In this document: positions 14,827 through 63,369 of the stretch, piece by piece
Numbering within the stretch: the first letter of the stretch is position 1
How the letters are laid out: the number at the start of each line of letters is the position of its first letter
Assembly: GCA_002633005.1 (NCBI GenBank)
Contig: NMRA01000002.1
Coordinates: 2,135,756 to 2,199,755 of the forward strand
Reading direction: 5' to 3'
DNA length: 64,000 nt
Origin: Phoronis australis
Taxonomy: Eukaryota; Animalia; Phoronida
Notes under the pieces: generated by a model
What the model was told of the DNA's origin: nothing
Database searches by the model: none
Seen by the model: the letters and a program-made list of their open reading frames with translations, nothing else
Made by a program: the position numbers and the translations under genes

Positions 14827-16330
14827 ACCACAGCCTCATAACAAGGACTCCATATTTTCATTACGTGTTTAAACTAACGTATATCATTAGATTGTCGCTT
14901 TATACTTCGTTTCAATAATCCTTTAGTACCGTCCAAGTAAACGTCCCGACGTTTGTTTAGGATTGGCCGTAAGACGACGCTGCTTATTGCAATCTTCCTT
15001 CAAGGAGCTTCAGGTGTAGGCTGTGCATTCTCGCCAAATTACATTGTATTCGTCATCCTTCGCTTCTTGATTGGTGCATCGAACTCTGGAATTTTCATGA
15101 CTGCATTCGTCGTGGGTAAGTTGGATATTCAGAATGGTTTAAACAATAACGAGAACTAAATGCTGAGGATGACGATGCAAAGATGGAATGACTTCCACGA
15201 GGGCACGATAACGATAACGTTGACAATGATACATGTACAGTAATAATTACTAAGAGGATGAACAATAAAAACTGTCTGCATCGCCGGCCTAACGGTAAAT
15301 GTTGAGGCAGATATGTGATTCGTCTGCAATGAAAGACATCTTGCAAGTACTTCCTCAGCAAACGACTGAAGCTTATTCGGTAGAAGTCAACGTGACATAC
15401 ATGTGTGAGAAAAAAGAATAAAAAAGGGTAACAAGCCTATCAGTTTGTGTGAAGAACCCGTATTTTTTAGTTCCACTTACATACTGTTTTAGAGATGGAA
15501 TAGTTTGCCTTAACCGTTCACGTAAACACGTCCTACTTCGGTTTTCCCTGTTTACCGTTTCCTACACGACACTGTCTGACATGACGTTCGGCTTAGGCGA
15601 ATGGAAAAAATAAGCTCATAGTATCCGCTATACAGCAGTTGTATAATTTATCGGTGTATCGTAAGCTGGTCAAAGCGTGTATAGTCTTAGAAGCCCGCAC
15701 CTTGACCTGTAGCTATGCCCATTCCGGGAATGTCACCTATGGCAAATCTCTCTCACTGCCGGCACCGACGGTGTTGTTGGAAGGTTGCTGGTTCATAATC
15801 ATCCTCTGACATCACGTAGACTTGGAGACTTGGCAAAGTTTCATAGAGGCAAGAAGTCGCTAAAAAAGCTACTGATGTCGGAGGGTCCCCATGGAAAGCA
15901 ATGTGAACTGATGGGGCTACCCTCATTGTAAATACTACATTAATTCATAAATAAATGATAAATAAATACATGGCGATATCTCNTATTGCTAAACCAAACA
16001 TACACATAATTGTAATAATTATAACTCAGATTCAGAAACAATTAGAAGACAAAATAGCCAGAACAAATTTCAGTAAGAAAACCCAAGTACAAAGGCACAA
16101 AAATATAACAAAATACCTCTATGAGCGTCAATAATATCGCAACTCGTTGAAAACATTGTTCTACATTCATGTCAGAAGGTCAAGTGACGAAAAGAGCACG
16201 AGCACCAACAGCGATGGATGCGCAGGTGGAGGCGGCAGAAGCAGCAGCAATAGCAGCAGCAGCAGCAGCGGCAGCAGCGGCAGCAGCGGCAGCAGCAGCA
16301 GCATCAGCAGCAGCAGCGCAGTAGCAGCAG

Positions 16331-16392
<62 letters not shown>

Positions 16393-19300
16393 ACCACAGC
16401 CTCATAACAAGGACTCCATATTTTCATTACGTGTTTAAACTAACGTATATCATTAGATTGTCGCTTTATACTTCGTTTCAATAATCCTTTCGTACCGTCC
16501 AAGTAAACGTCCCGACGTTTGTTTAGGATTGGCCGTAAGACGACGCTGCTTATTGCAATCTTCCTTCAAGGAGCTTCAGGTGTGGGCTGTGCATTCTCGC
16601 CAAATTACATTGTATTCGTCATCCTTCGCTTCTTGATTGGTGCATCGAACTCTGGAATTTTCATGACTGCATTCGTCGTGGGTAAGTTGGATATTCAGAA
16701 TGGTTTAAACAATAACAGAACTAAATGCTGAGGATGACGATGCAAAGATGGAATGACTTCCACGAGTGCACGATAACGATAACGTTGACAATGATACATG
16801 TACAGTAATAATTACTAAGAGGATGAACAATAAAAACTGTCTGCATCGCCGGCCTAACGGTAAATGTTGAGGCAGATATGTGATTCGTCTGCAATGAAAG
16901 ACATCTTGCAAGTACTTCTTCAGCAAACGACTGAAGCTTATTCGGTAGAAGTCAACGTGACATACATGTTTGAGAAAAAAGAATAAAAAAGGTAACAAGC
17001 CTATCAGTTTGTGTGAAGAACCCGTATTTTTTAGTTCCACTTACATACTGTTTTAGAGATGGAATAGTTTGCCTTAACCGTTCACGTAAACACGTCCTAC
17101 TTCGGTTTTCCCTGTTTACCGTTTCCTACACGACACTGTCTGACATGACGTTCGACTTAGGCGAATGGAAAAAATAAGCTCATAGTATCCGCTATACAGC
17201 AGTTGTATAATTTATCGGTGTATCGTAAGCTGGTCAAAGCGTGTATAGTCTTAGAAGCCCGCACCTTGACCTGTAGCTATGCCCATTCCGGGAATGTCAC
17301 CTGTGGCAAATCTCTCGCACTGCCGGCACCGACGGTGTTGTTGGAAGGTTGCTGGTTCATAATCATCCTCTGACATCACGTAGACTTGGAGACTTGGCAA
17401 AGTTTCATAGAGGCAAGAAGTCGCTAAAAAAGCTACTGATGTCTGAGGGCCCCCATGGAAAGCAATGTGAACTGATGGGGCTACCCTCATTGTAAATACT
17501 ACATTAATTCATAAATAAATGATAAATAAATACATGGCGATATCTCCCGAAGTGGTGTGTGCTCTTTTGTTTCGTGAGATTCTGACCTCTAGACAAGTCA
17601 TGTCTGGATTAAGTCTGGACTGAATTCTGTGCATGTAAGAATTTCGTGAAGGAAGCTAATTTAATTACGTGCTTCGCTTTTGATACATGGCGATATTTCG
17701 TGAAGTCGTGTGTGTTCTTGCGTTTTTTGCAAGGTTCTCGTGTCCACTGAAGGCACGCCTGTGTAATCTTCCGTTTTCGCGAACATCTGGGGTATACGGA
17801 CAGCAAGCCTGGCAAGTGAGTTGGTGAGATTTAACTTCAGCCTGATCGGATAGGGCGTGCCTCCAGAATCTTTCGCACATAACATTGGCTAAAGGTCTAT
17901 GTACTCATATCATTGCTGTTTTGTCAAATCTAAACTCCAACGAAAGTTTTCGCACGTCCATAGCTTTCAGATGCCAGCAATAGGTGGCAAATAGCTCCAC
18001 GGTCACAGACAAACACGTCGAAACTGTAACCCAGCAGTTTTGCAACGGCAACGTTTCGGACACATTAAAATACTACCATTCAGTGCGTTTCATATTAATG
18101 AGTGGTGATGACATTTTAAGGTAGTAAAATGTCACAACCTAGAAGCTGTTTTGTTTTTCCAAATCTCCTGCTTTATTGAAGATAATATCAAAATCAAACA
18201 AAGGCAGGAATGTGTATTTTTCGTAAGATTACTGTCGTTTCTACTCTCCATTTTACTTTCAGGTATGGAGCTAGTGGACCCATCAATGCGTCTCTTTGCT
18301 GGGATAGCAATGGAGTTCTTTTATGGCTGTGGTTTACTTGTTTTAACTGGTCTTGGCTACCTTCTGAGAGAGTGGACTTGGCTTCAACTCTCATATTCTG
18401 CTCCATCATTTCTGTTTCTCTGTTATGTACGGTATGTGTCCACAAACCACCTTTCTTCTTAGTTCTTACTTAATAAACTTCTTCGCTCAAGTTAACTTTG
18501 TTGATTCTAAAAAAATATCGACATCTGATTGGCTACGAGTTTTAGTATGTAAATAAAAGTATCATTGTAACTACTAACGGAAGTCTTAAATCAAACCCTT
18601 CTTAAATTAATAACCAAAGTTCCAAAAACTCATTTTCTTCAACAAAGTTAATTACGATATCTAAGAAGTCGTTTTGTCTTATCAGTTACGACGCTTAATT
18701 AATATGAATTTGAGTACTTTTTGAAAATAAGAACAATATTACGGCCATCAAACGGTAGAGTCTTGGATTAAGTTTAAGTGTGTTTCTGATGATATTAAAG
18801 CTTTATTCCCGAGTCAGCGCGTTGGCTCCTAGCACAAGGTCGCCAAGAAGAAGCCGAGGAAATAATACGCCGCGCAGCCAAGGTAAGCACTTTTCTGAGA
18901 AACACATGCTACATGTAAATATTGCGAACCCAGAAAGCCACTTTTTGTAAACACCATATCTTTATTGTACCTGCACACACAATGGTTGATTGTATTTTTT
19001 CTGTGGCAAGACCAACAAGTGGATCTCACACTACAGTATCAATGTTTTGTGAATCACAAGCGTTCAGCAGCTTATGGTGGGCTTAACTGGTAGTTGAACT
19101 TTAGGTCAAGGTTTAGTTCTCTGATGCCGAAAGTTCCACATGCTTCTTAGACACGTTTCCTCCGACCTTCATGGACATAGAGTCTAATTTATGTACGGAA
19201 CTTTTCGTATAAAGAATTACTCTCTTGTTCCTCGGATGCATGACGTAGGTTACATATCCCACTGTGTCTCCAAGATTTCCAATGTGTACTTGTATTTGTC

Positions 19301-22300
19301 AAAAGCAATTGACTTGTCAATTTCTATTTCTTTTGTTCCGTAGATTGCCTTCTTAAGTGTAGTATTACAATTTGGCAATGTCTCTAATTATATCAACCGT
19401 ATGCGATGCGATTCTTTTACTATTGTCTCAGGAAAATCGTGTGACACTCCCTGAGAAAATTTTCGATGAAGAGCCAGCTGCAGAGACCAATCCCAGTCCG
19501 TCTATGGGTCTTGTACAAAGTATTAAAGAGCTCATTCGTGCACCTAAGCTGCTTATACGCAGTCTTGTTGTCTTTTTCAATTGGTGAGTTTGAACACGAC
19601 AATGTTAGTCACGTGGTCAGTTTGTGAAGAAAAAGAGTGAAGCAGCCTACCGGAAGTCACGTTACCAAAACCTGATGCTAGCAGGGGATGCACGAAAGCT
19701 TCAGAGCACCTGCTATCAAAAATGATTTAAAGCAAAGAAGGCCAGTTTCAAAGACCAGTTTTCGTTATTTACGCAAGTTTCACAAATACGAAGTACCTAT
19801 TGTTTCTAGTTGAGACACTGCTGATTAAAATCACTGCGAAGAGGGAATCCATGAAATAACTACGGGAATGCACAGACAGGCTGGCTAAATTTTGTTATGT
19901 TATTTTGCAGTGATTTTACCAAATTTGAAGTTAAGTTTGTATGAATGCATAGACAAGAAATTTGCGTTATTGTTTCGAACATCAAGCGAGTTTATGGTTA
20001 TATCGATAATAACCACCAGAGGAACTCAAGTGTCCCTTGGCTAAGCCTATACCTGCAGAGATTCGATCAACACGAGATAATAGTCAATTCAGTGCCAAAG
20101 TCAATACGCATGAAAAAAGTAACTAACTCTTTACTATTTCAGGATGGTGGTTACTATGGTATACTACGGGTTATCTCTGAATAGCGGTAACTTGGGAGGA
20201 GATGTGTTTGTCAACTTCATGTTGTCTGGACTCGTCGAATTCCCCGCTTATGCTTTCTGCTTCGCCTGTAAATGGCTGGGCAGAAAATATCCACATGCCG
20301 GCAGTATGGTGCTAGGAGGTCTTGCATGTATCAGCACAATTTTCGTTGTTCTTTATTTTGATTGTGAGTAAAAGTTACTTTCATTTAGGTACTTTTTTCG
20401 CAATCACTTGGCTTATGTAGCGTAGGTGCAGTTAGAGAGGAGTAACTTAGATATGGTGGCCACAAGCATAACCAGGACATGCACGAATGTGACAATCCTG
20501 GTTATTGCGTTTCTTGACACAATAAGTTGAAAGACAAAACGGTCCACATTGATCATTGTGTAAAAACTGTGCTCCCTAGAGTTCTTTTATTTCCCCTGCG
20601 TGTCCAACTATTACTTGGTAATTGTGGAAAATTGAAGTTGTATTTTTTAGCAAACAACGACTGGTTGATTGCCCTCTCAATGACTGGGAAATTTGGCACC
20701 ACCGTGGGATTTTCCATTCTTTACTTCTGGTCTGCCGAGATCTTCCCTACGATTTGTAGGAATGGTTTGATGGGACTGAGCTCTACAGTCGCCCGTGTCG
20801 GTGCTATGGCATGCGCTCCAATTGCGGACTTGGTGGGTACGGGCAAAATTTCGAAATATTCCTGTTGACTTGAGCTGGGCAATTGTTTGATCTTGAATAT
20901 CTCGTTCAACGGGGTTATAGATGAACTCGGTGCTATTATTTGTTTATATGGGTCCATTTTCATGAAAGTGACTTAAGACTTAATACTTAAGACAGAAAAA
21001 TGGTTTAAACGCTCCCGGCCCAATCACAATTGTTTGCAAAAGGTTAAACTGAGTAACAATAAGAGCATCAAAGTCTAGAAATAGTTCACAGACGTTGTCT
21101 CAGTAATTGGTGTTGATGTGTATATAGTTCAGGGACCTTGCACTTTTTCTCAATTCAGATACGATTATATGTTTCCGAAAAAGTTATCAGGAGCTTAAGA
21201 CCGAATTTATGACTAAGCCTTAAGAGACCTTTCATGAAAAAGACCTCTGGAATCCAATGAGGATCCTAGTCCAAAGCAACCAAGCGATGAGGCTTAATGA
21301 GTGTGGGTGACGTTACGCATTGATGACACATGTGCTAAGATTTGCTTCTTAAAAGACAAGCTTGCAGGTCGGACGTATTGTAGCATGTACGTAGAACACA
21401 CAACAGATGGGGTATAATGAAGCTAAAAGTAGCCTTACAGTCGGCGACATCATGGCCTAGATACTCAATACTACAGTCTAGGTTGGCACATCCTTATCAC
21501 TACTGCACGATGAAAGTTTTTATGCAAATTACACTTAACCCAAAGTCACGTTTCTAAATGTACTTTTCGAGTGTAGATGGGCAACATTGGAGGCAGTCAG
21601 AGTCTAAGTCCCTCCATCTCGAACAAGTAATCCCACAATCACCATTTTTCCAAATAATCCTTCGTTCTGCCTCCGAAATCCTATACGGAGACAGTTTTTG
21701 GATCGCTCTTAATTCTCGTACCAGAAACGCCACTTGGCATTTTTCAACGATTTCGTTGACGATTGAAGACACGTATGGGAAATAAGTCTTCAATATCAAA
21801 ATCCTTGTTGGGGTTGGAGGATTTCAAGAACGTTGGCGGCTTCCAAATGTGTCATTCGATGCTCAAAAGATACTTACAACAACGTGACTTAGATTGTTTA
21901 GCCAATGTGTGGCATAAATTGATGAAATCTTCCCGCGTACAGGGTTCCTATGGAATCTATGTTTGAGCTCCGCTCAAGCACGGTAGCACTGTCTAAACTA
22001 CTTGTTGTTCTCCCCGAGTGTGGGAATTATGTCAACGCCTACTCCACTAGGCTATCTTAAGAAATTTAAGAGCATTCATGTACAAGCTTACAAAGCTGGG
22101 AATATCTTCAAGTATACCTTTAGTAGTCTATAAAAAGCGTGTGTCTGTATTTCCCTTGTGGCTTAATAACATAAGATAACCAAAAGATTGCAACCATGAC
22201 AGGGTAAAAGTTTTGGAGGACAATTCGGCGTGGCTTTGCCGCAGATTGTGTTTGGAGGACTCACTATCATCGCCGGACTTTTGTCCCTCATTCTGCCAGA

Positions 22301-23288
22301 AACAACGGGAAGGGAGTTGCCTGAAAGTATAGAAGACAGCAATAACTTTGGCAGGTAGGCTCTTTTTCTTGTATTATTCTATTTGGGGCGCAATTGTCAA
22401 GGTAGCACCGGCCGCCAATTAGTAGTCCTGGCCCGTCATTGGTTGTTTGAACCAAAAAAAAAATAAACGTAATGAATGGCGATTTCTCGAGACGTCCTGC
22501 GTTTTCTCGATTGTATTACTCCAACGGAACGGGTAAATGTTAGTCGCCGGAAACAGCATACATTGGATGCACTTGAACTGACTGCCGGTTCCGCTGGGTC
22601 AACCACCGAGCATATATAGTTGGTCTGTAACCCGGAAGTTGTCTTCGAGAACCAATCCAATGTCTTTGCCTTTTGTCCCGGCCAAACCGGCGAAGTTAAA
22701 CAAGTGAGGCACTGATACCACCTTCAGATATGGGATATAAAAAATATAGATAGAAGGTATGATCTGAGAACGCAGGTGCAGATGCTTAAAGTTGATGATC
22801 ACAATGTGTCCCACAAGCCATCGTCCACGCAATTGGCATTGCATTAAAGTACAAAAAGCTTGTTATTCGTACAACAACCACGGACATGCATACTCTAACC
22901 ATAACTGACGTCATTGACATGTTGGGTATGATTTTAAGGAGACTGATCTGCCTTCTGGTTTGGAGAAGCACAATAAGTAACCAGATCAGACGTTTGGCGG
23001 TTCACGTGTGAAATAGTTTACAGCCAGTGGATCATACGTCCAATGTCTTCTAACAGGATGTCATAGGAACTCTGTATAACCATGAACTGCAAAAGAGGCA
23101 TCATAGCCTTCATGTTTTTTGTGTTTTTTATTTGCACTGCCATTCTGTGTAGGTCTGACAAGGAGAAAGAAAAGCGACCGGATACTGACCTGTACTTGGT
23201 GCCGAGTTACAAGAAACGTGATGCAGAAGAAATAGCGTACAGTAATCCTGCATTGGACAAAGCAGTTGAAGCTGAAGACCGGTTGTAG
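10900..23288 (+). CDS. SLC22-family (MFS) organic cation/carnitine transporter-like, paralog A
   Basis: Coding exons: 10900-11042, 12840-13092, 13750-13853, 14961-15115 (duplicated at 16527-16681), 18263-18431 (5b), 18801-18882, 19432-19583, 20143-20363, 20651-20832, 22203-22354, 23153-23288 (TAG). Motifs: [51 protein letters not shown]. The 104/155/169-nt exon run matches the exon sizes I recall for SLC22 genes. Confidence 0.92.
13130..13660. repeat. Degenerate (CAT/CAC/CGT)n low-complexity tract in intron 2 of gene A
   Basis: Trinucleotide-rich tract. A paralogous tract sits at the same position in gene B (42960-43270). Confidence 0.75.
14690..14826. repeat. (GCA)n microsatellite (second copy at about 16232-16390)
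   Basis: Long imperfect CAG/GCA run in intron 3 of gene A. Its length differs between the two duplicated copies. Confidence 0.95.
15493..15660 (+). pseudogene. Dead exon 5a of SLC22 gene A (first copy)
   Basis: 168-nt AG/GT-bounded segment alignable to intact exon 5a of genes B and C, but reading ATG GAA TAG (stop) with further lesions. Confidence 0.8.
17057..17224 (+). pseudogene. Dead exon 5a of SLC22 gene A (copy in the duplicated block)
   Basis: Same sequence as 15493-15660. It keeps the TTTTAG acceptor and GTAAGC donor, and the premature TAG. Confidence 0.8.
18263..18431 (+). CDS. SLC22 gene A exon 5b (intact, 169 nt)
   Basis: [57 protein letters not shown]; bounded by TTTCAG and GTATGT; phase 1 to 2. 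Confidence 0.9.
20951..21247. mobile_element. MITE (~300 bp) in intron 9 of gene A
   Basis: Imperfect TIRs GGGTCCATTTTCATGAAAG / CTTTCATGAAAAGACCTC and internal CTTAAG repeats. Related fragments lie at 2650-2904 and about 41145-41450. Confidence 0.65.
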
Positions 23289-25227
23289 ATTGGGATTATT
23301 TATTTCCATATAGGGCATGGCAAAATAACATAGAATTAGATCAAATTCTCAAGTTAATAGGCCTATTAAAATACACTGTTAGACCCGTTCAGCCGAGCTT
23401 GCGGAATTTTTGTTTTGTTCCGGAATCCGGAAAACACTATGACACCGAGATTCTCTTGTTATTTTGACAAAAATCGTAGTAATCAGAAATGATAAAATAT
23501 TCTCAAGTGATACTTGTCGTTTGGACTTGTAGGTGCAGTAAACTGGCGAAAAAGGAAGGGGTTTCTTAAATTTTCAAGTGAGTCATATAAAAGAAGTTCA
23601 TAATTACATGAATTACCAAAACTATTTTATTTGCAAAAGGCGCCTAAACATGAGCGGAATGTACGTGTTCTATGAACCAAAATAAATTTTATATCATCTC
23701 ACTTTACTCGCAATCGACGGTGAAATTGTTCCAGAAAGCATCAATGACGAGACAGGCTAGTGAATAATTCCACCTCGTTAGAGCATATGCGCGCAGATGT
23801 GCCTATATCCGAATTAACACCTCTTTCCAAGGTACACAATTTTCGCAAGTATTTCGCGTGTAGACGCACGCGCTCAAGCTTCTTGTATAGACACAGGTGG
23901 TTACTCCATACAAAAGCACGTGTGGCAGTTTTCTATTGTTACGAGTCCAATTTTGATGCTTTTCAGGTAAAGAAAAGACATGCATGGTAACAGATAAATC
24001 TAGTAGCTTCACTCACTTGATGCAGCATAAGAAAAAAACCCGGAAACTTGGGCGCATTTGTGGTGTAATTTATGATATTCACTGCGAGGGGGTCGATTTG
24101 GTCAGTTCTATGGACGAGACTGAAACTCTGAAAAGAAGCATGTATCACCATAGAAGAGCTTCTGACGTGAAGGAATTTTGTTTACATACAAGTATCGTTT
24201 GCATGAATTTGACACATGAGTTTCATAATGAAAATGTTGAGATTCTGTACAGAAAAGCAATTTGTTCGACAAAGGGTAACAGGAAGCTATATACATCTAA
24301 GCCATAAGTTATTTCCTCAATACGCTAGATACCAACAGATGTAATTTGTCGCCTCCACGAAAGTACTAGAGTATTGGTTGTGTCACCAGACAAACAAGAT
24401 CCTGCGTGACTGGAGTTCCCGAGGATCTAGGAATCAAGGTCTAACAGACCAGATCCAGGTATTAAAAGTATATTCAATTCGTGTTCGTCGAAATGAAGCT
24501 GGTTATGTAAAACCAGAGGCAATCGTATTTAGCATTTTCGAAGTTTGTATTGAATCTTTATTAACAATCCGTGAAACTCACAGCCCAACAAGAACGTGGA
24601 AATTTTCCTGGCAGGCACAATAATTGACTTCTTCAAACTCATCCTAACCCTTTCCGTCCGATGCTGTTATTTTCGTCGTGCGGCCCAAGCTTAGAATACA
24701 AAATGTTTCGTAGCAGAGATTTCTGACAAAGCTCTCACCAATCGGAGGCCCAGTCATGAGAACTGTGGGACTATTTCACACGGTGGATTCCGGGTCCACA
24801 TGAATCGATGTAATTAATTTCTCAATTTTTGGCAACCAAATTATCGATGACGTTATCACCTTGACAATGAATTCGTCGTCAGTCGACTCGCTGTAGGCGG
24901 GAGTTGGTATTTCGACGCCATGATCGACCAGGGTGGTGGCAGGCAACAACTGTCAAAACTGCACAAATTGCAACAGTTCTTACATAATTTTTCATTGGAG
25001 TTCATTGTACTCGAATTGAATCATATCTGCTGGACAATTCTCACAAAATAAAACTCTGGTTAGGAACCTCACGTAAAATCTCATCCCAGGAAGAGAAGAA
25101 CGAGCTCCGTTCAAAGTGTCGTCTGCTTTGGATGAGAGTTAACGTAAGGTTGCTAACCAGACCGAAATCTTGTGAGAAAGGAAGAGACGAAGGTTTCCGT
25201 TAATCTTCAGTACCACCTTCCTTTTAA

Positions 25228-26873
25228 AGGAGAATGCCACCTGATTTAATTAGTCTTTTTTACCATCTGAATCTGTCTATATCCACACCGCCTCTTATAC
25301 GGTCGACCTCTCCTTGCCGAGAGGTGTCGCGTTAACCTGTGAGGAAGATGGGAAACGACGCAGCGACGTCAGTGGTTCGTCTGCAGAGTGAATGCCGCTA
25401 TATTGCGGTGCATCGTTCCCGCTTGTTCGAACTATGACGCTGCGAAGAAAGCAAATATATCGTTTTTTCGACTTCCTCGAGAGCCCGAAATGCTTAGGAA
25501 GTGACTCGTGGTAGTGAAGAATGAAAGGTACGCTGTTAATAGCAAGTATGAGGCCGTGAAACATCTCCGTGTCTGTGCCGGGCCGGCATTTCGTCGACAG
25601 TGATTTCTCTGACGAATTCCGGCTTACCAAAGAACTATCCATACATTCCGTTGCCTGTGCATGTTCACGGCACCCCTGTAGTATTTCTTGATCAGTGTAT
25701 TCCGGTTCGTATTGATAGCCTGTGAAACCTACCGATCTGACCCGTGAAGTCTTCGTCGGATGAGCTCTTGGCTAACTATAAGTCGGGATTGGCGCCGCCG
25801 GGACGAGATGCCATGTACATGTAGACGTTTATTATTCAGCGTTCTGTTTCAAAATGAATTATTCTCACCCTAACCAATGTTTATATAAAACTGAAACAAA
25901 GTTTGTCTTATTAGATACAATTTGTAATGCCTTTACAGTATTCGTGAGTGCAAATGCTGAGAAGCCACAAATGAATAAACCACTGCGATACCGGCACATG
26001 CTAATTCAGTGTTTGCTGACAGAAAGCTGTCACAGTTTTGAAACAATCACTCGATTTTATATGGTATGGTCACCTGTTAGAGGAATCTTTATTTAGAAAT
26101 ACAAATACAGTATTCAAATCATTGTTACTGTACAACCTTTAAAACCTTTGCCCTGGCAGTTTGTGGAAGGGGAACCCAACTTCGCGGCCCCCGACAAGTA
26201 AGTAGATTTTCAGTTTCGGGTTGCTAATTCACATAAATAATTACGTGCACATTACTTCTTTGACCCACAATTATAGTCTTTTCGTAACTGGAGGTTTAGT
26301 TTCCAACTCAAGCACGTTTATGTTCGTGCCAGTCCCAACGGCCGCGACGGACCTGATCGGGTTCAGAGCCACTGGCCGGGATAACAAGCGTCGGTTTTGT
26401 GTGTTTAGAACTCTAAAAATCACAAGTCTAAACAACACAGTTCTAGGTTCTCTTGTCAGTATTTCACGGAAGAATACTTCGAATTTATCTCCGAACAGAT
26501 CCCAAACTCCTGCTACGGAACTTGGTAACTTGGCCTGCCGAACTTTGTAGGCTACGCCGTGTCCAAACACCAATAAATCCGTAAATAAAATAAAACGTTT
26601 ATATAAGAACTCGGTGTATTTGTAAGGGCTTTACATCGAAGTTTGGTGATTTATTGGTGTTAAACGATGAATTCAAGCGATAAGCTGACACCAGTAACCC
26701 GTGTTGTGAACTGCTGAACAGACTGCGTGTGAAACCAATGATGTCATTGGATAATTTCAACACCGTCGTCTGCCGTCAGGTGTCAGGTAACGCAACCGAA
26801 CGTGCCGTTATCGAGTAGAACTACTCGATCTAAATTGATACAAAATAGGTTGTTTTTTGGGTGGCAATCTCCT
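25228..26873 (+). mobile_element. Non-autonomous Kolobok-like DNA transposon with a decayed THAP domain
   Basis: TTAA|AGGAGAATGCCACC ... GGTGGCAATCTCCT|TTAA, i.e. a TTAA TSD and a 14-bp TIR with one mismatch. About 25391-25655 reads CIVPACSN...SFFRLP...RK*L...LRVC..HF..SDF, a broken C2CH THAP. Confidence 0.78.
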
Positions 26874-31488: not shown

Positions 31489-31565
31489 TCTCTCCCATCC
31501 TCCCTCTCTCCTCTCCTTCCCTCCTCCCTTCCTCCCCTCTCTCGCTCCCTCCCTTCCCCCTATCT
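31489..31565. repeat. CT-rich polypyrimidine tract
   Basis: About 75 nt composed almost entirely of C and T, roughly 0.8 kb upstream of the gene B start codon. Confidence 0.7.
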
Positions 31566-32324
31566 CGTGTATGATAAAAGTTTAGCCGTATTTAAATCAC
31601 AAATAAAAATGCAATTCAGCGGTCGTTAAACGTTTCAAAATTCATTTATACTGAAATGATTGCCGTTTCCTAATTGTTTACAGGCCTTGTTACAGACACA
31701 CTACACCATGATTTGGATCTACGAGTGTTTTGTTGGGACAGTTTTGATTTTTGCTTTAATTTGTTATTTTCGTGAGGTATCAAGGTATCAGTATAGCTCA
31801 TTGAAAATATTCTTTTAATGAAATTAAACCCCCGGAATGAAACAGGTCCAGCTAATCACGACTGCCAGACCTGTGAGCTGCTAAGCCTAACTATAGTCTA
31901 TTTTATTTAACGTATTTGACGGATTTGTACAGATAAGATTCTATCTCCATGTACTGATGTTTGTCCAAATCTGAAATTATATAACTTATTTCTCGCAAAG
32001 GATCATTGACAGTGTTCGCAATCCCAATTGCTCACCCGTAAATTATCGGTCATAATACGGAGTGCCTTCCTTTCTTGAAAAATTACACAAAATTTATCGC
32101 TAGGTTACCGATTTAATTAACGATGGAACCAGATATGCCGAAGAAAACTTTAAAAAAAAAATATCCGGAGGCACTCTTACCGACCTTCAGACCTTGACAA
32201 CCGATAGTGTTATCTTATTCAAAATACTGTCATCACCTTACCTAACAGCGAGCAAAGGTGTGCACAAGAGGATCAGTTTCCAAAGTTTTCTTCAATTTCT
32301 AATGTTTAATGCTTGATCAGCAAA

Positions 32325-44017: not shown

Positions 44018-44049
<32 letters not shown>

Positions 44050-51770: not shown

Positions 51771-54700
51771 ATTACGATTGTTTATTTCGATAAAGGGCAT
51801 GACAAAATAACCAAGAATTATAGAATCCGTAGAAAGCCTATTCAAATGTATCCTTGTTAGGCACGTTTTATTTTGTTTTTAGTTTACGTTATTTTTATTT
51901 TTCCATTGTCTTGAAAAGTAATGGAATGGAATACAGCTCTAATTGGGTGAAGATACATGTAACTGAGCGCGGACTACTTTCCTTATTTGTCCATCAGCTG
52001 TATACATGTTAATTTATAGTGTTTCAGCACGAATCTAAAATGAGCGTGTCACTGTGACTGTTGATGTTTATTTAAAAAAATGCTAAGTTGTTATGTTCTG
52101 GAAATGTTTCTCTTATGATATATTACTTTTGTGTCCAGTAACTCAATCAGTGAATTTACAGTCAATTTAAACTACCGAATACTTTTATTTGTCAAGGTTT
52201 GAAAATTTAGGATCTGCAAGTGAAATAGAGTTCTTGTATAATAAATGTATTCAAGAAACAATGTTTGAAATGAAGACTGATTTTCCCATTTGCTGTCTGT
52301 AAGATTCTCTTTCAAGTATGTTTTATTTTAGACCTCATAAAATGAAATTTAACTCATTCTAATGTTCTTACCGTATGACATCGACCTTCTCACACTCAGT
52401 TTTTGCATTTTCATGAGTGCACCACATAACGAACAACATCAAACTAGACTTAAAATTACTAAAATGTCAACAAATCGTCTCTTGATAGTAAAAACTAAAC
52501 TAGTCTGTTTCTTGGACATGTCAGTATACCATATTCATGCCCGTACCTTTACTCTCAAATTAAGAAATTTAACGGAATTTTGAAGTGCGTAAATCCAGTT
52601 TCAGTGAACCTATTTTTAGGATTTGAACGCCAATTTCTGTTACTTTTATGTTCTACATATATCCGGAATCATTATTTTTTTAAAATTTCTAGTATTTCAA
52701 AAAGCACTTTGACAGCCAGACTTGTTTGTTACATTTTAAGTACATTTTCATAACGCTCAGTTTACTCTTTTGTTACCTTTGAACACACTATGAACGTTTA
52801 TTGCTGAGCGATTTTAACCCATTTAATGGGTGTAAAGTGTTCGGATTCTACTTCTTGTGTGAAACAGAAATGCACGTTTTACATTGACAGAATTAAAGTA
52901 GAAATGTAAATATAAACCACTGTCTGATTTGTACGACATGTTCCATATTGAAATTTGTTGTGTGGAACTCTGCGTATTGTAAACGTGGGGGGGGGGTCCT
53001 TTAATTTCCAAATTTGTGACATAAAAGAAGGTGATAATACATTTAAAACATCAGATTGGTGCACAAACAGATTATAAACATGACTGGTATGTATATGTTC
53101 TATGGACTACTCAACTCATCATGCCCAGAACCGATGGCGGCAAACTCGTCAATGGGGGAGACTGAGAATTTTTTCCTCGTTTGAGTATATGCCCATCAGT
53201 GTCAATATAATCGAACACACCTTATCAAGGAAAAGAAATTCCTATTTGTTTCACACGTAAGCGCATGTGCCTATTTCTTCTTATTGGCGCAGACGGCTCT
53301 TCTTTGCAAACGCTCGTGAAGGAATGAGTTATTGGTTCTCTTGGGCCAGTTTTAGTGCCTTGTGCCCAAACAATGAAATTTTTTGTCATAGATTAAGATT
53401 GGCCACACGTTGTAACAGATAATTCCAGATTCACCCACATATTCTATGAGTATAACCCATCGGCGAAACTGACTTTGATAACGCATGTAGCTTGCATTTC
53501 GTTTTACATGCTTCACTTACCAACGTATTCTCTGATGTTCGTCATTTTATGTTTTTTTCTTGAATCTTTATCAATAAAGTATACAGGGCAAAAACGGTAA
53601 TAGCAAAATATCGACGTCGTCAAACTCCACGAAATCCCCTTCCTCAGGTCGCTATCATTTTCTTCACTCGGCCCGAGCTCTATTGAGTGCAAAGCGTTTT
53701 CGTACCAGGGATTTCTGAAAAAGCCTTCAACAAAGGGAGCCGCTGGAGAAGGACGTGGGTCGAGGGAAGACGTCCAATGAAGGAAATCGTCTCGGGCACT
53801 ACCAATTTACTGAGGGTACTTACTGCACTTAAAATCTTGGTCCGTCGTCTAAGGGGGAAAGGACATACCAGGGGTTCATTTTTGAACGTTGAAAAAGTGA
53901 CCACGGGTAAAAATTTAATGAAGCTGCCAAAGGTAAAGCCAAGGATAAGAAGCAAGGACGTGTTTGAATTAATACACTGTATATGAAAGATTTCCGTATC
54001 AGTTATCTTAAAACGTTTCTTGGCAAACATATGTATAGCACAACTTGTACACTTTCATATCGTCAACTGTGCAGGTTTTCGTTTATGACAAAGATATCAT
54101 AACTTTCTTTTAAACCAGTTGCTTGGAATTCTTTGACGTCCTACAGCAATAGGTCCAAATAAAATACGAATGTGGCTAAATAGTGAATGAGATTGGAGGT
54201 AGCATTCAAAGAGTGGAGGCGTGTGGATTTCAAAGACGGCAAAGAGAAAACAAAAATTTGAGACACTGTAAAAATCACAGATGAATTCAAGGTTATCATG
54301 AAGGCTGAGTTCCATCGGATTAGTTGACCAAGAAAAAGGTTAGGGAACAATACATTGCACTGCGCCACTTGAAACATAACCTGCCGGAAAATCACGCACT
54401 AGTTCTCGTGGACTCTTCGTATAACTAATCCTGCCAATCTTCTGAAAGCGTCCAATCAGCATATTGGAACACATCGATAGTGACCGTTCACACGTAGAAT
54501 CCACCACTTCCTCTACCGCAAACTTTTAGTTCATGTGTAAGCCGCTAGGCACGTTTTTAGTTTTGAAAGTATATGAAGGTGTCCCTCAAGTGCTTCCACG
54601 AACCAGTTTGCGGGGCAATGACCAATGGAAGAATGTTTATGGATAGACCTAGGATGTGCGAACAAATTTTAAGAAGCTTTCGAATAGGCTTTTCAGTTTT

Positions 54701-56866
54701 TGATTTAACAGTGACCTAATATTATGTATTCTTAACTTTTTAAACGAATAGTTTTTGTAACTTCATTACATTTAAAAATGTTTCAAACAGAAAGAATTAA
54801 TGAGGGTCAACATTTTTAGGAGCACAGTTCAGTCTGTCATACCCATACATCATTTTACCCAATGAACGTTCGCAACTGACCGTGGGTCAGAGGTTCAAAG
54901 GCCACGGATGATGACACATCTGTCTGTGGATTGTAACCAAAATGTTTAACCCCCATACATGTACAATTTCAAGGCTGATAGGAATAATTCATGTGATTTT
55001 TAATAGCGTTTTCTGATTTTGCACTTTTTAAGGGCTAGTTAGCTCTTATTTATAAGCGATTCTTCAGAACTAAGGGTTTGAGAATGTGTGAAGCTGGCAA
55101 ACCGAAAATTATTGTTTCGTTTAGTTAAAGCCTGCATCAAAGGAAATGTATCGTTGTCTGCAATACAAAAATGTAAAAAAATATCAACATCACTCGGTGC
55201 ATTAAAAAATTGATAAATTCTTATTAAAAGTTATTTCAAAATAGGTCTTGTGCGAAATTTTTTGACACCTACTAGTATCTGTACATACATGTACCATTCT
55301 GTAGTATTCAGAATTTAATCACGCTTGCTACTTGGTATTGAGTGTTTTATTGGTCACAATTCGCATTGGTTGCATTTCGGCGCCATCGAAAACATGCCTG
55401 AACTGAAATGCATGCTCTACCGATTACTTTTTGTGGCTGGTGAATATTCAATTAGGATATATTCGTAGACTCGTTGCTATAAGAAAAACAGTTTTTTAAA
55501 ATTTTCTTTTTTGTTCTAAGACGTTTAGGAATATTCTAAATACACCAAAATGAAGTGCCCATTCAACTGACATCGCACTGCACTAAACTTAGTTGAAATT
55601 GTTTTGAAATCGTTTTTGTTTGATAGTCGATTTTTTCAAGATATGGTTATGTGTCATTATAAGACACATATATTTTCTAAATTCTGTTTAAATTGCGCTT
55701 TTGATTCATGTTTTATAACTTATTACTTCCTGGTTCAAGTTACATCAAAGCAAAAATGTGAAGAATCTTAATTGATTTACAGTAACAGGCTACATTTGGG
55801 TCATGAAGTGTGAAGCTTACTCAAATTCTTGATCCTTGCAATTTCACATTAGGTCACGTGATGTGGCGTGCAGACCATACATGTACTTAAACATGTTTGT
55901 GATCAATGTGAACGTTTTTACCGTTGTTTAAACCGTTCTAAATCAAAATCACTAAAACTAAATGCATAACAAAAACATGTGCATTTGTAAGCAATAATCG
56001 TCTGCACATATACGAGAAGTTTATGCGCGTGCATGCAAAACATTTGAGAACTTTTCCTTGAAAAGAATTACTAATTCGGATAAGGACGTTGTAGGCGCAT
56101 AATTATACTTAAACGAGGAAGAATCAGTCAATATGCCTGGTCGTTGACGCTCTTAACAACGTTGCCACCGTCGACTGTGAGTAAAATGAGATGCTGTAAA
56201 ACTTCTTTTGATACACAAAGCTCATATTTATAAGTCTTTTCTGAATACAATCATTCAGACATTTCCAATTAATTTCCAATTTCAGGAAACTGTTTCCCTG
56301 TTTCTGCCAGTTCACTGTTCATACATTACAGACAATGTGTATGTTTACAGTTTACCACGACTTTTTTGAAGCAAAAAGTGAATCTCGGTGTCAGAAATTA
56401 AAACATGTATCCAAACATTGTATAATAAATTGATATGCATCAAAATAACTATTCCCAATAAAGATGAGATGGAGCGTCAGTCTTTAGGAACTGCCTATGA
56501 ACGTCGTCACCAATTGATCACGTGTTAGAAACTTGAAGGAATTGTCAATAGACTGCCACACGACGTGCAACGAGTAATCCATCACCAATATATCTGCAGA
56601 AAACGAGTCAGCGTCAACAGGCTCGTTCCAACGAGCCCATTTGCGGATTTTTCCAAGCTTTCACATAAGTAAATATAGGTAAACAAAACTGTTTTATTCG
56701 ATCACTCGTAAACTTTTCGAGATGCAAGAAAAAAAAAACAAAATTCCTCAAACTTAGGACCCCGATGTTCGGAGTTAACAACGCAATGGAATCGCCAATT
56801 AAATTCAGATTTAATCTAATTCTATGTTATTTTGCCATGCCCTATATTGAAATAGATAATCCCAAT

Positions 56867-59800
56867 CTACAGCCTGTCTTCAGCTTCAACTGCTTTGTGC
56901 AAAGCAGGATTACTGTACGCCATTTCTTCAGCATCACGTTTCTTGTAACTCGGCACCGCGTACAAGTTAGTGGATTCATTATCTGATCGTTTTTCATTCT
57001 TCTTGTCAGACCTACAAAAACAGTGCAAATAAAACGGAAACAAAAAAGAAACAGCCGGATTATCCATTGCCTCTTTTGCAGACCATGGTTATAGAGAGCT
57101 CATTCATGTACGCTGTCAGGTGAGAAGACATCGGACGTCTGATGCACCAGTTGTACATGTAAACTACTTCACACGTGGATCGTAAAACGTCTGATCTGGT
57201 TAATTATTGTTTTTCCAAATCAGACGGCAGGCCAGTCTTCTTAAAATAAGGCTCCACAAATTAATGACCTCATTGTTAGAGTCTGTGTGGTCGTGACGTA
57301 CCAGATTGTCCTGAATACCAACATTTCTGCATGTTAGTGTTATGCTAATTGCTCGGTCGATGTGAGATGAGATGCAGTTCGATCATCCACTTCAAAAGGA
57401 AACTAAACCTTGTTTTCGTGATTTCAACTGATCCTCCCTCTGTCACCTGCTAATGCATCATAGGCGTCAATTGCGACAAAAAGGCGGAATCGTCTAAAAA
57501 TTTATACTCCCTATCTTACAAATTTGACGCCATGGTCCTCGGTGGTAGTCCTTTCCACAACTGCCGTGTAATTTGATAAAAGCGAAGGCCACGCTTGCGC
57601 GTTTAACAGACTTTGAAAGAAGTTTTCAAACTTTCCTCCAAACATTTGAGGATTGTCGTTGTTACAGAGATTTATTTTTCCAGAGAACTGGATGGGAAAG
57701 CGGTTTTACTATCTGTTTTAACGGATGTGGAATGTTCACAAAAACGCAAACAGTTAGCTCAGGTAAGTCTAGGACTGTGTCCAAAAGTCAAATTAATGCA
57801 TGGAACTGGCCGTAATTCGGTGCACCATAAAGACAATAAAGTTAGGCCAACCTTCTGATGAACTTCACATTTTTGTAGTTTCAATGATTGCAAAAAGGTA
57901 GTTTTCATTTAATTTTAAACGTAGCATGATCACTAAGCTGGGGTGCGATAACAAAATATGACAAGTCTGGGGCAGTGGCAAAAAGTAGTCATTTACAAAA
58001 ATAATAAAATTGTTTTTTAAAGCTTTATAAATCCAAGTATCGTGTTTGAACATCTTCAGGCGTAGTATATACTAGAGGTTCACATCAAAAACTAATTCAA
58101 CTGTTTATTTTTTCATGGCAACATCTCAAATGAGGCTTTAAATTTAGTAACCTAGTGCCAGCCCCTCCCTGTAGTTGAACGCCAGCCTAAGGTAGGCGAG
58201 TAACAAAAAGGTGCCTGTGCTACGAAACAGAAGGATGTACATTATAGGTCGAAATAAATGAAACATAAGAAAAATGTCGTTTAAAACAACTTTCCGGACC
58301 GCTAGACTAATGTGGGATCAAGCAGATGCCGAGACGAAGGCGCCCCGAAAAGAGTGAAACTCTGGAGTCAAAATCGAATAGGCCTACAGTATAGCCACCA
58401 AACTAAAAATTACGTATCTTTTAACAAATATATTTGTTTTAACCTTCCAGTAATCCATCAAACCTTGCAAAGTTTAGCTGCTTGTGTAGCCATCCAAACG
58501 AGTTGATCCATCGTTTATACAATTGACAACACTTTTCGGCGTAGGGAATACCCAAAAAATGACGGAATGTTCTTCTCGAGCAGAATATAGGGTGTCAGAA
58601 CTACACAGGCCCTATCAACATCGTTTCACCATCCTTATCGCACATTTTTTTAAGCTATAGACTAAAGTAAGCTTTACCGACAACGACGTTGTTTGTCGAA
58701 TAAAAATGGCGGCTTGGAATCGCACACGAAGGTGTGTTCTGATTGGTCAGTTAAGCCATCAGTCATAATACTGGCGATTGGTCAATTATACAAGGCATGG
58801 AGACCTACCTGCCAAAGTTGTTGCCGTCTTGTATACTTTCAGGCAACTCCTTTCCGGTTGTCTCTGGGAGAATGAGAGAAAGGAGTCCGGCGGTGATAGT
58901 AAGTCCTCCAAACACGATTTGCGGCAATGCCACGCCGAAAGGTCCTCCGAGTAATTTGCCCTGTTGTAGTTCAAGTATTTCAATTAACATGTCTTAAGAC
59001 GCCAAAACAGGGAACTTTGCATACGCATTTTAAAGGCGTAGTTCAGGACCTTTCTCAACTTTCAAATTTCATCATCTTGAAATAGTAGGCCTCAAAAGCA
59101 GTTTTCACCCACTCCCTCACAATATCGTTAATTCCGTGCACATATGCAGAAGTAGATGCTGACGATACTTCCCGATCGTGAAGCGACAACCCCATAACAA
59201 ATATAACAGACAATCACACTTGTTGAGCAGATCACTGTCACCCGGTAGACTATTATAAAGTCAACTGCACCCGCACATATGTTTGAATTCGCAGTTTCCG
59301 CCCACGTTGACTTACTGGAATTGATTTCTTGAGAGTGGGTATGAACATGTTGACACATTGCTGGCCAACTTCAGAGCGTGTCAAGATTGGTTCAATTTGA
59401 AGGTATAAACCTTTCAAATTCACAGGTTTAAATCTTTTGAGTATACTTAAAAGGGAAGAATTAAAATTCCAATAGCTCCATTATTTTCATCGTTTGCGTT
59501 TTTCACGTACCCTACAAGTTACAATGCTTCCGACCTGTAAAGTAGTCTTTTAAATTACATGTACAGAATACCGAGCAAGTACAAATACACAAAGAAACGG
59601 ATTTAATCATTTGCGTCATCAATCCAAACATTTTCATAGTAATTTGCTCCAGAGACCATTAAACACGTGGCCAGGTTACTTTGGATTATCGTCCGCATGG
59701 AATTTCGAAACCATCATACGAAAACACTTGGTTCATCTATAAGATCGGTCAGCAAGATGCTCAAGCTTTGAAAATCTGACAAAACAATTACCGAGCTTCA

Positions 59801-62800
59801 GTGTGCAAGAATTTCTCAGCATTTTATACTCACCGAGTCCGCAATTGGAGCGCATAACATACCACCGACACGGGCGAAAGTCGAGCTCAGTCCCATCAAC
59901 CCATTCCTACAAATCGTAGGGAAGATCTCGGCAGACCAGAAGTAAATGATGGCAAATCCAACGGAGGCGCCAAATTTCCCAGTCATTGAGAGGGCGATCA
60001 ACCACCCATTGTTTGCTGGAAATATATAATATAAAATTTCCACAAGTAAGTCAAGTACTGGAAAAGTGCCGGAGATGAAAAAACGTTAGGACCTGGTAGC
60101 ACCGATTTTACACAAAGGTCAATGTGGACCGCTCTTCTTCAAAACTTCCTGTGTCAAGAAACGCAAAACCAGAATTTTTACATTCGCATGGCGGTTTACG
60201 CCTGTGGCTGCCAAATCCAAGTTATTCCTCTCTAACTGTACCTACGCTGTATAATTCAAGGGATTGAGAAAAAAACTTAATGAATTGAACTTTTACTCAC
60301 AATCGAAGTAAAGCACAATGAAAATGGTGCTGATACATGCGAGACCTCCTAGCACCATATTGCCGGTATGTGGGTATTTTCTGCCCAGCCATTTACATGC
60401 GAAGCAGAAAGCATAAGCGGGCACTTCGACGAGTCCCGACAACATGAAGTTGACAAACACATCTCCTCCCAAGTTACCACTATTCAGAGATAACCCGTAG
60501 TAGACCATGGAAACCACCATCCTGAAATAATGAAATAGTAAGGATTTAGCTTTTGTCATGTTTGTGCGCGGAGACTTAGGCACTGAATTAGTTATTAACT
60601 CGTGGAATTCCATTTTGTGCAGATATAGAGTCAGTCAAGGAACAGTTGAATTCCTCCGGAGGTTATATAATATAACCATACACTTGTTTGATGCAGCCCA
60701 AACAAAAACAAATATTTCCTACGCGTGAATTCATGCAGACGTAACGCCACAACGTGGTAAACTCACTGCAAAATAACGTAATGAGATCTAATCTACCTGT
60801 CTGTACATTCCAGTGAATTTTTTGTGGATTCCGTCTTCGCATTGATTCCAAACAGAAGCGTCTTGACTGCAAACAATGGGTACTTCAAATACCCGAAACT
60901 TGTGCATACGATGAAAAAGAGTTCTTCGAAACTGGCCTTCGAAAGTATTTTAAATCGTCTTTGATATCAGGTTCCCTGAAATTTTCGTGCATCCTCTGCA
61001 AATATCAGGTTTTGGTCACGTGACTTTCGACATGCTGCTTCCGACTTTTGCTTTACTTGCTCCAGAAACTAACTGACTTATCACGTGAGTGACACCGTTT
61101 CTTCAAACTCACCAATTGAAAAAGATAACGAGGCTGCGTATAAGCAGTGTAGGTGCATGAATGAGCTCCTTCAGAATTTCTATAAGACCCATTGATGGAC
61201 TCTTAGTGGCCTCTGCAGCTGGCATTTCGTCGAACATTTTCTCGGGAAGTGTCACACGATTTTCCTGGGACAATAGAAGGGGAAACGCTTCACTAAACTG
61301 TTAGAGCAGATAGCCTTAACGACAATACTAATGCTTTTTACGTAGAAGGCTATTGGAAAGAACGAGATAGATGCCATTTTCTTTTGACAACTACATATAA
61401 GATACCATGAAAACACAATGGGATACACAACTCCCGTCATGCGAACAATCCCATCATAACACCCTGAGAATAAAGATTATATTACAAATGGGCAATCCTG
61501 TACATAAATTAGACTTGGTATCGATGACGGTGCCAACATCACGGTCAGATGAAATAGGTCTAAGAAGCACATGAAACATCCGGCATTTTAAGATAAACTA
61601 TAAGCTAATTTCACCGTAAGGTCTTGCATGCACTTGTTTCGAAAAACATGATACTGTAGTATAAGATGCACTTGTTGGTCTTATAGCTTTTCACAGGAAA
61701 GATGCAAACAATCACTGCTTATGCAGGTACAATACATGGCGCTTACAAATCTTGGATTTCTGGGTTCGCAGTATTTACATGTAGCCTGTGTTGTTCAAAA
61801 AGTGCTTACCTTGGCTGCGCGGCGTATTATTTCCTCGGCTTCTTCTTTGCGACCTTGTGCCAGGAGCCAACGCGCTGACTCAGGAACAAAGCTTTAATAT
61901 CCTCAGAAACACACTTAAAGTTAGTCCAAGACGCCACCGTTTGATGGCAATACTATTTGAGATTTTAAAAACTACATGTATTCAAAGTCCTATTAATTAA
62001 AAGTGATAACTGTCAAGAAAAAATGACTTCTGACATGTCGTAGTTAACTTTCTTGAAGAAACTGAGTTTTTGGAACTGCAGTTGGCTAATATTAATTAAA
62101 GAAGGATTTTGCTTAAAACTTCTGTTAGTATTTAAAACATGTTGATGTAACATACTAAAATTAGTAGCCAATCAAATGTCGATATTTTTTAAGAATTAAA
62201 CTCAATAAAGTTGAGCGAAGAAGTCTGTTAAGAAAGAAGAAAGACAGTTCTTGGACACATACACATGTACCATGCATAACAGAGACACAGAAAGGACGGA
62301 GCGGAATAGGACATTGAAGCCAGGTCCATTCTCTTAGAAGGTATCCGAGACCCGTTGAAACAAGTATGCCAGAGGCGAAAAAGAACTCTATAACGATCCC
62401 AGCAAAAAGTCGCATTGATAGAACCATTAGTTCCATACCTGAAAATGAAAAGATGACTAGAAAAGCTAGAGATCTTACGAAACAATCACCTTCTTGGCAA
62501 ATGTTCGTTTTTGCTATTGGAAATCAGAACTTACAGTTTCGATATGGTTACAGTTCATTGCCTTAACATGTCATTATCACTATTAAATAGACTTGGTGAT
62601 GGTACATGTATTTCAATGTTTCCGAAACATTGCCGTTGCAAAATATGGGCTCAGAGTTTTGACGTGTTTTGCCTGTGACCGTGGAGGACAGACTGTATTC
62701 GAGACCATGTGCCGGGATCTTAAATGTATGGGCGGGTAACTGCTTTCGATGGGGCTTTGATTTGGAGAAACAGAATTGTTTTCGGAAGATTTCATCTGCA

Positions 62801-63369
62801 GCGCTGCTGTCTTTTGTCAAATGCATTTTGAGACGGTTGTTGGGTTGTAAACATCCAGTGACGTTACAAATAACTTGGTGATTCGTGAACATCATGGCGG
62901 AAACCAACATTGCTTACTTGAGTTCACCACAATTGATGTGAGCATGCTCATTCGATACAAGTCGTCATTTTCAGTACAACGTTATTAAGTACATATCTAA
63001 CGTCACTAAGAAATGGAGTGACTTTTTATCGGACGAGCATGGATGTGAATATAACAGCCATGATGTTTACCGGCCTCTAACCGTCCAGCAATGCATTTGA
63101 TAAACGACCGTCAGAACTGAGTGAGATAGTTTTGCCTTGGATGACATCCCCCGAATTAGCATACGTCTAGCAGGGCTACACACGCTTTGATTTAGCTTAC
63201 CATATACCGATAAAGTATATAACGGCGGTAGCGGACGCTATGAGCTGTATCATACTCCAGTCACGTAAGCCGTATGCCATGCCAGAGAGGATCGGGTAGG
63301 AAGCGGCAAACAGACCAAACCGAAATAGGGACGTGTTCACGCGAACGTTTAAAGCAAATGTCTCCATCA
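56867..63369 (-). CDS. SLC22-family transporter, paralog C (5'-partial; exons 1-4 beyond the window end)
   Basis: Minus-strand exons: 63369-63201 (5a), 61891-61810, 61264-61113, 60521-60301, 60015-59834, 58960-58809, 57011-56867 (TAG). Exon sizes and motifs match genes A and B. Confidence 0.92.
62271..62438 (-). pseudogene. Frameshifted exon 5b of SLC22 gene C (168 nt)
   Basis: Reads [42 protein letters not shown], then has a 1-nt deletion relative to gene A (CTTCAA-TGTCCTAT vs CTTCAACTCTCATAT). SYSAPSFL continues in another frame. Confidence 0.8.
63201..63369 (-). CDS. SLC22 gene C exon 5a (intact, 169 nt)
   Basis: [57 protein letters not shown]; bounded by TTTTAG and GTAAGC. Confidence 0.9.

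Follow-up and report, generated by a model that had tools for sequence, protein, structure and literature searches.

Homologous alternative exons apparently divided among clustered SLC22-like transporter genes of Phoronis australis

How is a choice between two homologous, mutually exclusive exons shared out once the gene making that choice has been duplicated? This question is raised by a stretch of 64,000 nucleotides (nt) from Phoronis australis contig NMRA01000002.1 (positions 2,135,756 to 2,199,755, forward strand; hereafter the window, in which all coordinates below are counted), which holds two complete SLC22-like genes, A and B, on the plus strand together with the 3' portion of another, gene C, on the minus strand. 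Two types of exon 5, termed 5a and 5b, occur between exons 4 and 6 of these paralogs, and an earlier annotation made from the letters alone (the sequence-only reading) had proposed that each duplicate has already fixed one isoform. This does not hold for C-type copies, in which 5b is intact in RNA reads and spliced to exons 4 and 6. In the account that we consider the probable one, A kept 5b, B kept 5a and a C-type copy keeps both exons and likely switches between them by sample, the choice thus being caught in the course of its division.

All six exon-5 intervals of the sequence-only reading were found at their exact coordinates and with AG/GT ends, and the intact exons A-5b, B-5a and C-5a are, as it had stated, open, 169 nt long and of phase 1 to 2; both copies of A-5a as well as C-5b measure 168 nt in the assembly. 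In gene A, the intact 5b (18263–18431, plus strand) is of the canonical type. The two 5a intervals upstream of it (15493–15660 and 17057–17224, both plus strand) are dead as claimed, the early TAG given as the reason being replaced by a longer list of lesions shared by both copies, namely three in-frame stops and one missing base. The first copy belongs to a first contig end and the second lies inside a contig-end overlap, as about 1.54 kilobases (kb) flanking a single N at 15983, the only N of the window, form a likely false duplication (14441–17546). The flanks of this N (14441–15982 and 15984–17546) are 97.4% identical, with 14 substitutions in 1539 aligned bases and 6 gap blocks, and the overlap also doubles exon 4 (14961–15115 and 16527–16681) and a GCA microsatellite. 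Hence, the two A-5a copies are most likely overlapping ends of two contigs and a scaffolding artefact, perhaps representing two haplotypes. A real tandem duplication of exons 4 to 5a of gene A was considered and rejected, since copies abutting a single N at this level of identity point to contig overlap.

For following exon use, a contig set of presumed RNA origin (X1) and three stranded raw runs bearing the same species label and coming from one study (X2, X3 and X4) were employed. The latter were judged to be RNA by how the reads aligned, and about 18–19% of the reads of each run were used. Mapping covered 44600–64000, with 15 of 27 junctions listed, and 61050–63520, with all 3 junctions listed, the listing threshold being 3 reads from 2 starts. 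Variant sites listed were 40 of 448 in the larger region and 40 of 52 in the smaller one, 30 of these being used; reads were phased to 151 nt at most, and read classes were assigned from summary tables.

In gene B, 5a (46796–46964, plus strand) is intact and used in RNA, with 5, 2 and 11 reads joining it to exon 4 in X2, X3 and X4, respectively, and 12 reads in X4, with loose ends matching B-5a exactly, joining it to exon 6. The following intron (46965–47496, plus strand, 532 nt) is without a 5b relic, so that the description of B in the sequence-only reading is borne out by both sequence and RNA. Neither in this intron nor in that between exons 4 and 5a of B did local alignment to 5b score higher than shuffled controls; only the last 110 nt or so of the intron between 5a and exon 6 align with the intron preceding exon 6 of gene A, and no further exon-5 copy was found in the window by tblastn with the exon peptides. 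On the side of gene A, six X2 reads connect an exon 6 to the end of a 5b that resembles A's (1 mismatch in 28). Partition is complete for these two genes, with A having only 5b and B only 5a, i.e., complementary exons were kept.

Gene C differs. Its 5a (63201–63369, minus strand) is intact, is joined to an exon 4 in each of X1 to X4 and is open in the assembly as well as after applying the nine listed read variants. Across an intron of 762 nt with GT-AG ends (62439–63200, minus strand) follows 5b (62271–62438, minus strand), which had been read as frameshifted. This is correct for the assembly, where the exon is one base short near 62313 and bears a weak donor (GTACAT), but the frameshift is not in the RNA reads. 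The letter that the assembly has beside the missing base was found in 0 of 31 raw reads, a linked substitution occurring in 17 of 17, 13 of 13 and 1 of 1 reads of X2, X3 and X4, and the extra base restoring the exon was called in 10/17, 11/13 and 0/1 of these reads and in the X1 contig, giving an open 5b of 169 nt. The sequence-only reading had named assembly errors behind the lesions as fatal to its proposal; the absence of the lesion allele from these reads goes part of the way for C-5b and does not extend to A-5a. The C-5b lesion may even be merely an assembly error; however, some X2 reads share other 5b changes of the assembly (2/11, 7/18 and 6/18), suggesting that a class of alleles is drifting. 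The assembled haplotype could be one that is now losing 5b, with three residue changes away from A's, the weak donor and the frameshift absent in RNA.

Both exons of C-type copies appear in spliced reads. Exon 4 was joined to 5b in 9 and 11 reads of X2 and X3, and 5b to exon 6 in 9, 8 and 0 reads of X2, X3 and X4, whereas joining of exon 4 to 5a is documented by 3, 6 and 6 reads (loose ends) plus an X1 contig. Direct joining of 5a to 5b is rare, with 0, 3 and 1 reads in X2, X3 and X4. Because of this evidence, the former view of C, with fixation of 5a and loss of 5b, is restricted to the assembled haplotype. Moreover, A-5b and C-5b differ at 18 synonymous and 12 non-synonymous positions, corresponding to a ratio of non-synonymous to synonymous substitution rates (dN/dS) of 0.17 (P = 8e-5). 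It follows from this clear constraint that C-5b was under purifying selection and that, until recently, a functional 5b was maintained next to an open 5a in the C lineage.

C-type reads fall into two classes. At six linked sites of exon 7, roughly half of the X2 and X3 reads depart from the assembly and define class 2, the assembled haplotype being class 1; X4 has only class 2 in this exon (7/7 at 61205 and at 61210). At three residues of 5b that have drifted in the assembly, class 2 agrees with gene A. The six X4 reads joining exon 4 to 5a are clipped at 63377, 7 bases past 63370, and among the three exon-4 haplotypes seen this position fits only the one joined to 5b in X2 and X3 (5/7 intron matches ending on a match, versus 3/7 for the others), the 24 letters of depth in the bin concerned corresponding to 6 reads with 4 letters each. 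Further downstream, the 5a reads of X4 show the class-2 letter in 9 of 9 cases at 63338, and so do both 5b reads at 62420, which necessarily include the read running from 5a to 5b. Counted in this way, class-2 exon 4 was joined to 5a and 5b at a ratio of 6 to at most 1 in X4 and of at most 2 to 20 in X2 and X3 together (Fisher test, 4e-4, with reads not being independent). Hence, it is likely that one and the same class-2 copy, equipped with both exons, takes 5b in X2 and X3 and 5a in X4. B is most highly expressed in the sample in which the C-type copy appears to choose 5a, among three samples of one study: junction reads of B amount to about 11 per gigabase (Gb) in X4 versus 1–2 in X2 and X3, and those of C-type copies are lowest in X4 (2 versus 7–8 per Gb). 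As to the nature of class 2, differences between all RNA and the assembly together with mosaic X1 contigs suggest an allele of C in a polymorphic species, while a 1:1 occurrence of both classes in two samples, with only one of them in the third, would suit a sister gene outside the window.

The same reads bear on a partition complete in cis, by which each copy, an unseen C-like sister or allele included, would use one exon without any live switch and the reads joining exon 4 to 5a in X4 would come from another copy or allele sharing the exon-4 end. Within X2 and within X3 the consensus exon-4 ends spliced to 5a and 5b do differ, at three of the last ten bases, as if choice followed the copy, and haplotypes look mosaic between samples, X1 mixing class letters. 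Yet the C-type reads of X4 are of class 2 in 5a, 5b and exon 7 alike, a read running from 5a into 5b ties 5a to the class-2 5b, and the long constraint on C-5b next to an open C-5a requires past use of both exons. We regard a purely cis-based partition as unlikely and prefer a C-type copy that can still take either exon.

How the two exons could be kept apart is in part given by their length. As the sequence-only reading had recognized, including both intact exons shifts the frame, and 169 plus 169 nt lead to a stop in exon 6 (nt 10), with the last exon junction lying far downstream. A stop in such a position usually triggers nonsense-mediated decay. Joint inclusion of 5a with an intact 5b is thus predicted to be non-productive, and exclusivity may be maintained at least partly by frame, via the stop in exon 6 and decay of the transcript. 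Steric hindrance and a U2/U12 mismatch are unlikely, because the exons are spaced by 762 nt in C and 1038 nt in A and both have GT-AG introns. Scanning for inverted repeats that might serve as docking and selector pairs, a scan made without shuffle control, gave only short pairs, none evidently common to A and C. In the assembled haplotype only, 5a followed by the 168-nt 5b stays in frame to the gene end, adding 56 residues, and no read has this allele. The shifted frame of 5b is stop-free in gene A too. Frame-coupled exclusion is described as the commonest arrangement in human clusters of mutually exclusive exons, about 60% of which have exons that are not multiples of three, and joining reads were found in 22% of the latter (PMC5740500).

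Rare joining also fits an account in which C-type 5a is unproductive, a poison-like or leaky exon whose inclusion leads to 5a plus 5b or to retained introns and decay, leaving B as the only source of 5a protein. The sole onward junction seen from C-type 5a goes to 5b, intron reads flank 5b, and X4, the sample with 5a chosen, has the lowest C-type expression. However, coverage at the C-type 5a donor amounts to just a few reads, and C-5a is open with a branch dN/dS of 0.31, compared to about 1.0 in the dead A copy and 0.54 in B (not significant for C alone). An unproductive C-type 5a is, in our view, improbable, to about the same degree as the partition in cis.

Regarding age, the low identity of 5a and 5b claimed previously is confirmed, although the 13 shared residues between C-5a and A-5b are to be counted over 55 full codons instead of 57 residues; B-5a and A-5b share 12 of 55. 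Likewise, other exons are highly identical between paralogs at the DNA level, over a range of 83–96% rather than the 86–96% first given, exon-5 copies of like type reaching 72–81% and 5a versus 5b 47–54%. Synonymous differences are saturated between 5a and 5b (0.69–0.76 in pairs of intact or near-intact exons) compared to 0.34–0.43 between like exon-5 copies and 0.21–0.25 between other exons of the paralogs, and in the window 5a and 5b find each other by tblastn at an E value of 5e-4. In a tree of 44 exon-5 peptides (39 distinct homologue segments, gapped or duplicate rows having been dropped, plus the five window exons), the three 5a copies form one clade (support 100/100) and the two 5b copies another (100/98), the grouping by type that the sequence-only reading had predicted. 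Since synonymous sites are saturated and the tree groups by type, the exon duplication is older than the gene duplications, as also stated before. Its age is nevertheless overstated by the low protein identity, which in part reflects fast evolution of 5a: 5b is an ordinary SLC22 segment with a mean of 42% and at best 54% identity to 47 aligned homologues of 400–700 residues, whereas the derived 5a reaches 24% on average and 32% at best in the same comparison.

The simplest origin would be a tandem duplication of exon 5 within a single ancestor, followed by fast evolution of 5a. Alternatively, 5a might have been acquired through unequal crossing-over or gene conversion involving a distant SLC22 paralog. 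In agreement with this, the 5a branch is very long, at 1.68 changes per column, and has no resolved position in the tree, and the introns flanking 5a and 5b show no shared ancestry clearly above shuffles. On the other hand, no donor-like protein was found among 1.84 billion representatives, the best score among 61 homologues is 22 bits for a 5a profile versus 55 for 5b, the stretch between 5a and 5b contains no remnant of exons 4 or 6, and the exons agree in length and phases, making a foreign source very unlikely. For the order of subsequent events, introns 6 to 9 are 75–78% identical between A and C compared to 67–71% for either versus B, so B likely split first. Under the tandem origin, B would have branched off and lost 5b, and A would have lost 5a after the later split from C. 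The intron after 5b (18432–18800, plus strand, in A; 62270–61892, minus strand, in C) is 82% identical, exceeding introns 6 to 9, and may hold splicing elements.

Several points weigh against an exon choice still operating in the C-type copy. Foremost, no C-type junction from 5a to exon 6 reached the threshold in any run, at low depth, while that from 5a to 5b did; the former was seen for B only. In X4 the exon-4 haplotype is deduced from the clipping position, with no direct reading of its bases. The introns on either side of 5b are covered by unspliced sense reads, to a depth of as much as 13 in X3, most of intron 6–7 having none. The signal of purifying selection does not reach significance for C-5a by itself (4 synonymous versus 5 non-synonymous differences, P = 0.18; P = 0.08 for B and C combined), and a neutral exon would stay free of stops 39–57% of the time at these distances. 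Furthermore, the assembled C may be decaying as a whole copy instead of specialising on 5a, because it is derived at 19 listed variant sites over 5a, 5b and exons 7, 8, 10 and 11 (14 non-synonymous, 5 synonymous); class 2 is derived at 6 listed sites (2 non-synonymous, 4 synonymous), a contrast with P = 0.14 overall and 0.036 for sites shared within class 1. Finally, no 5a orthologue was found in other species by protein, profile and metagenome contig searches, which leaves the ancestral dual-exon state unconfirmed outside P. australis.

With respect to function, A-5b aligns without gaps to residues 230–278 of human OCT1, exon position 20 corresponding to F244; the remainder of exon 5 beyond the part for transmembrane helix 5 (TM5) is presumably TM6. 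In OCT1, F244 belongs to the TM5 wall of the binding pocket (bioRxiv 10.1101/2023.03.15.532610). Exon 5a keeps F at this site, but at the site of OCT1 Q241 it has S or F versus E in 5b, and an R one residue earlier. As the exon encodes the helix holding this pocket residue, swapping 5a for 5b is predicted to alter cargo preference, an effect that would be exerted via the helix with the F244 site.

Gene A (10900–23288, plus strand), SLC22/Orct-like with 11 coding exons and using 5b, has an open spliced frame of 582 residues, exons 1–6 being located at 10900–11042, 12840–13092, 13750–13853, 14961–15115, 18263–18431 and 18801–18882 and exons 7–11 at 19432–19583, 20143–20363, 20651–20832, 22203–22354 and 23153–23288. 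Gene B (32325–51770, plus strand), likewise with 11 coding exons and using 5a, encodes 583 residues according to its open spliced frame and junction reads (exons 1–6: 32325–32467, 42672–42924, 44882–44985, 45940–46094, 46796–46964 and 47497–47578; exons 7–11: 48112–48257, 48818–49038, 49413–49594, 50345–50496 and 51626–51770). Gene C is inverted and stands tail to tail with B; its 3' part (56867–63369, minus strand; exons 1–4 beyond the window) is based on a gene model and junction reads, with exons 6–11 at 61891–61810, 61264–61113, 60521–60301, 60015–59834, 58960–58809 and 57011–56867. No SLC22 exon beyond those annotated was detected across the window by tblastn of exon peptides, including 1–10800 and 23900–32200. 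In each of the three genes the pyrimidine tract at the acceptor of exon 6 (18801, 47497 and 61891) is poor, and a few reads continue without splicing into the intron upstream of it (3 B-like reads in X4). Exon 2 of gene B is flanked by two copies of an element of about 400 base pairs with self-complementary ends (34707–35105 and 43312–43721, opposite orientation, 92% identical), probably a small transposon, and this arrangement might promote skipping of exons or formation of circular RNA. Short pile-ups of reads on both strands with loose ends at 57439–57471, 63545–63960 and 45742–45794 are dispersed repeats inside introns.

Assignment to the family follows from whole-protein homology. Among named proteins, those nearest to the window genes are annotated as 'organic cation transporter protein' in Lingula and molluscs, and the gene A protein is 44–49% identical over its full length (548–588 aligned residues) to the five Lingula and mollusc Orct-like proteins tested, the nearest of which matches human OCT3, OCT2, OCTN2 and OCT1 at E values of 1e-90 to 1e-82. 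At the level of single exons, Pfam searches were mostly blank, except for exon 4 matching MFS_1 (E = 7e-5, below the whole-protein cut-off); exon 5b matches OCT1 and OCT3 at E = 2e-8, and a 5a profile matches SLC22 chains only, weakly (best E = 0.009). Accordingly, A, B and C are taken as SLC22 (organic-cation-transporter-like) paralogs by homology, with transport as their predicted function. Protein searches with C-5a gave 6 candidates and those with exon 2 gave 9, none at E ≤ 0.01 in either case, which is weak evidence. Both matches of the 5a profile among the representatives were rejected, one being a 2305-residue repeat protein with summed short matches and the other an 82-residue fragment resembling an ordinary SLC22 exon-5 segment. 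None of 120 pattern matches for a 5a orthologue in JGI metagenome contigs was confirmed. In the ESM Atlas, B-5a retrieved unnamed short clusters, one set having Sugar_tr on 11% of its members, a lead only.

Most known examples of isoforms divided between duplicates are completed ones from vertebrates. Here, one 53-kb cluster combines the dual-exon state with two finished losses and one likely unfinished loss, so that it becomes testable whether daughter genes inherit the tissue pattern of the switch and whether loss proceeds by drift or selection. In addition, the exon pair offers a natural helix swap in SLC22, with proteins alike save for 55 residues near the predicted pocket helix, as a probe of polyspecific cargo preference. 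More tentatively, and as a bolder version to which we give less credence than to the division itself, the cluster might be a living snapshot, with a C-type copy switching by tissue, B on in the 5a tissue, A fixed on 5b and loss of 5b segregating in C, i.e., a first internal mutually exclusive pocket exon in SLC22 with all stages of partition in one species.

A literature search, by title and opening of the abstract and with subscription journals not covered, found no case of a mutually exclusive SLC22 exon. A further mutually exclusive example in a transporter gene is exon 4 of SLC12A1 (NKCC2), which this search did not confirm. Tandem exon substitutions are reported as enriched in membrane transport genes (PMC9741552), and mutually exclusive homologous exons are described for SLC25A3 and SLC39A14 (PMC5740500) as well as for Drosophila mrp and ABCC9 (PMC9741552); the term 'SLC22' is absent from the supplements of both papers in the possibly incomplete copies available. 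Like in these transporters, an internal homologous exon is swapped, there often by tissue. Unlike them, the genes described here belong to SLC22, and their exons, with only 22–24% of residues in common, encode a helix predicted to line the cargo pocket; among known SLC22 proteins (OCT1–3, OCTN2 and those of Lingula and bivalves), no 5a-like segment is present in the single-domain homologues compared. Partition of isoforms between paralogs has been reported genome-wide (Lambert et al., PMC4417111), and 11 vertebrate cases of splice isoform separation have been compiled (Abascal, Tress, Valencia 2015, PMC4494069), among them complete ones in CALU, MARVELD3 and U2AF1 and four partial ones in CACNA1C/D versus CACNA1S/F, SLC8A3, CDC42 and FYN. 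The event in P. australis is hence of a known kind, in a gene family apparently new for it. In both settings, ancestral mutually exclusive homologous exons are kept in complementary fashion by paralogs, and the cluster described here can be assigned to the partial type, in which a further paralog retains both exons. The compiled cases are from vertebrates, start from human genes and concern mostly ancient exons, with no SLC22 member among the 11; in contrast, A, B and C form a local invertebrate cluster with introns that can still be aligned, one loss that is apparently segregating and a transporter of the MFS type as the gene product.

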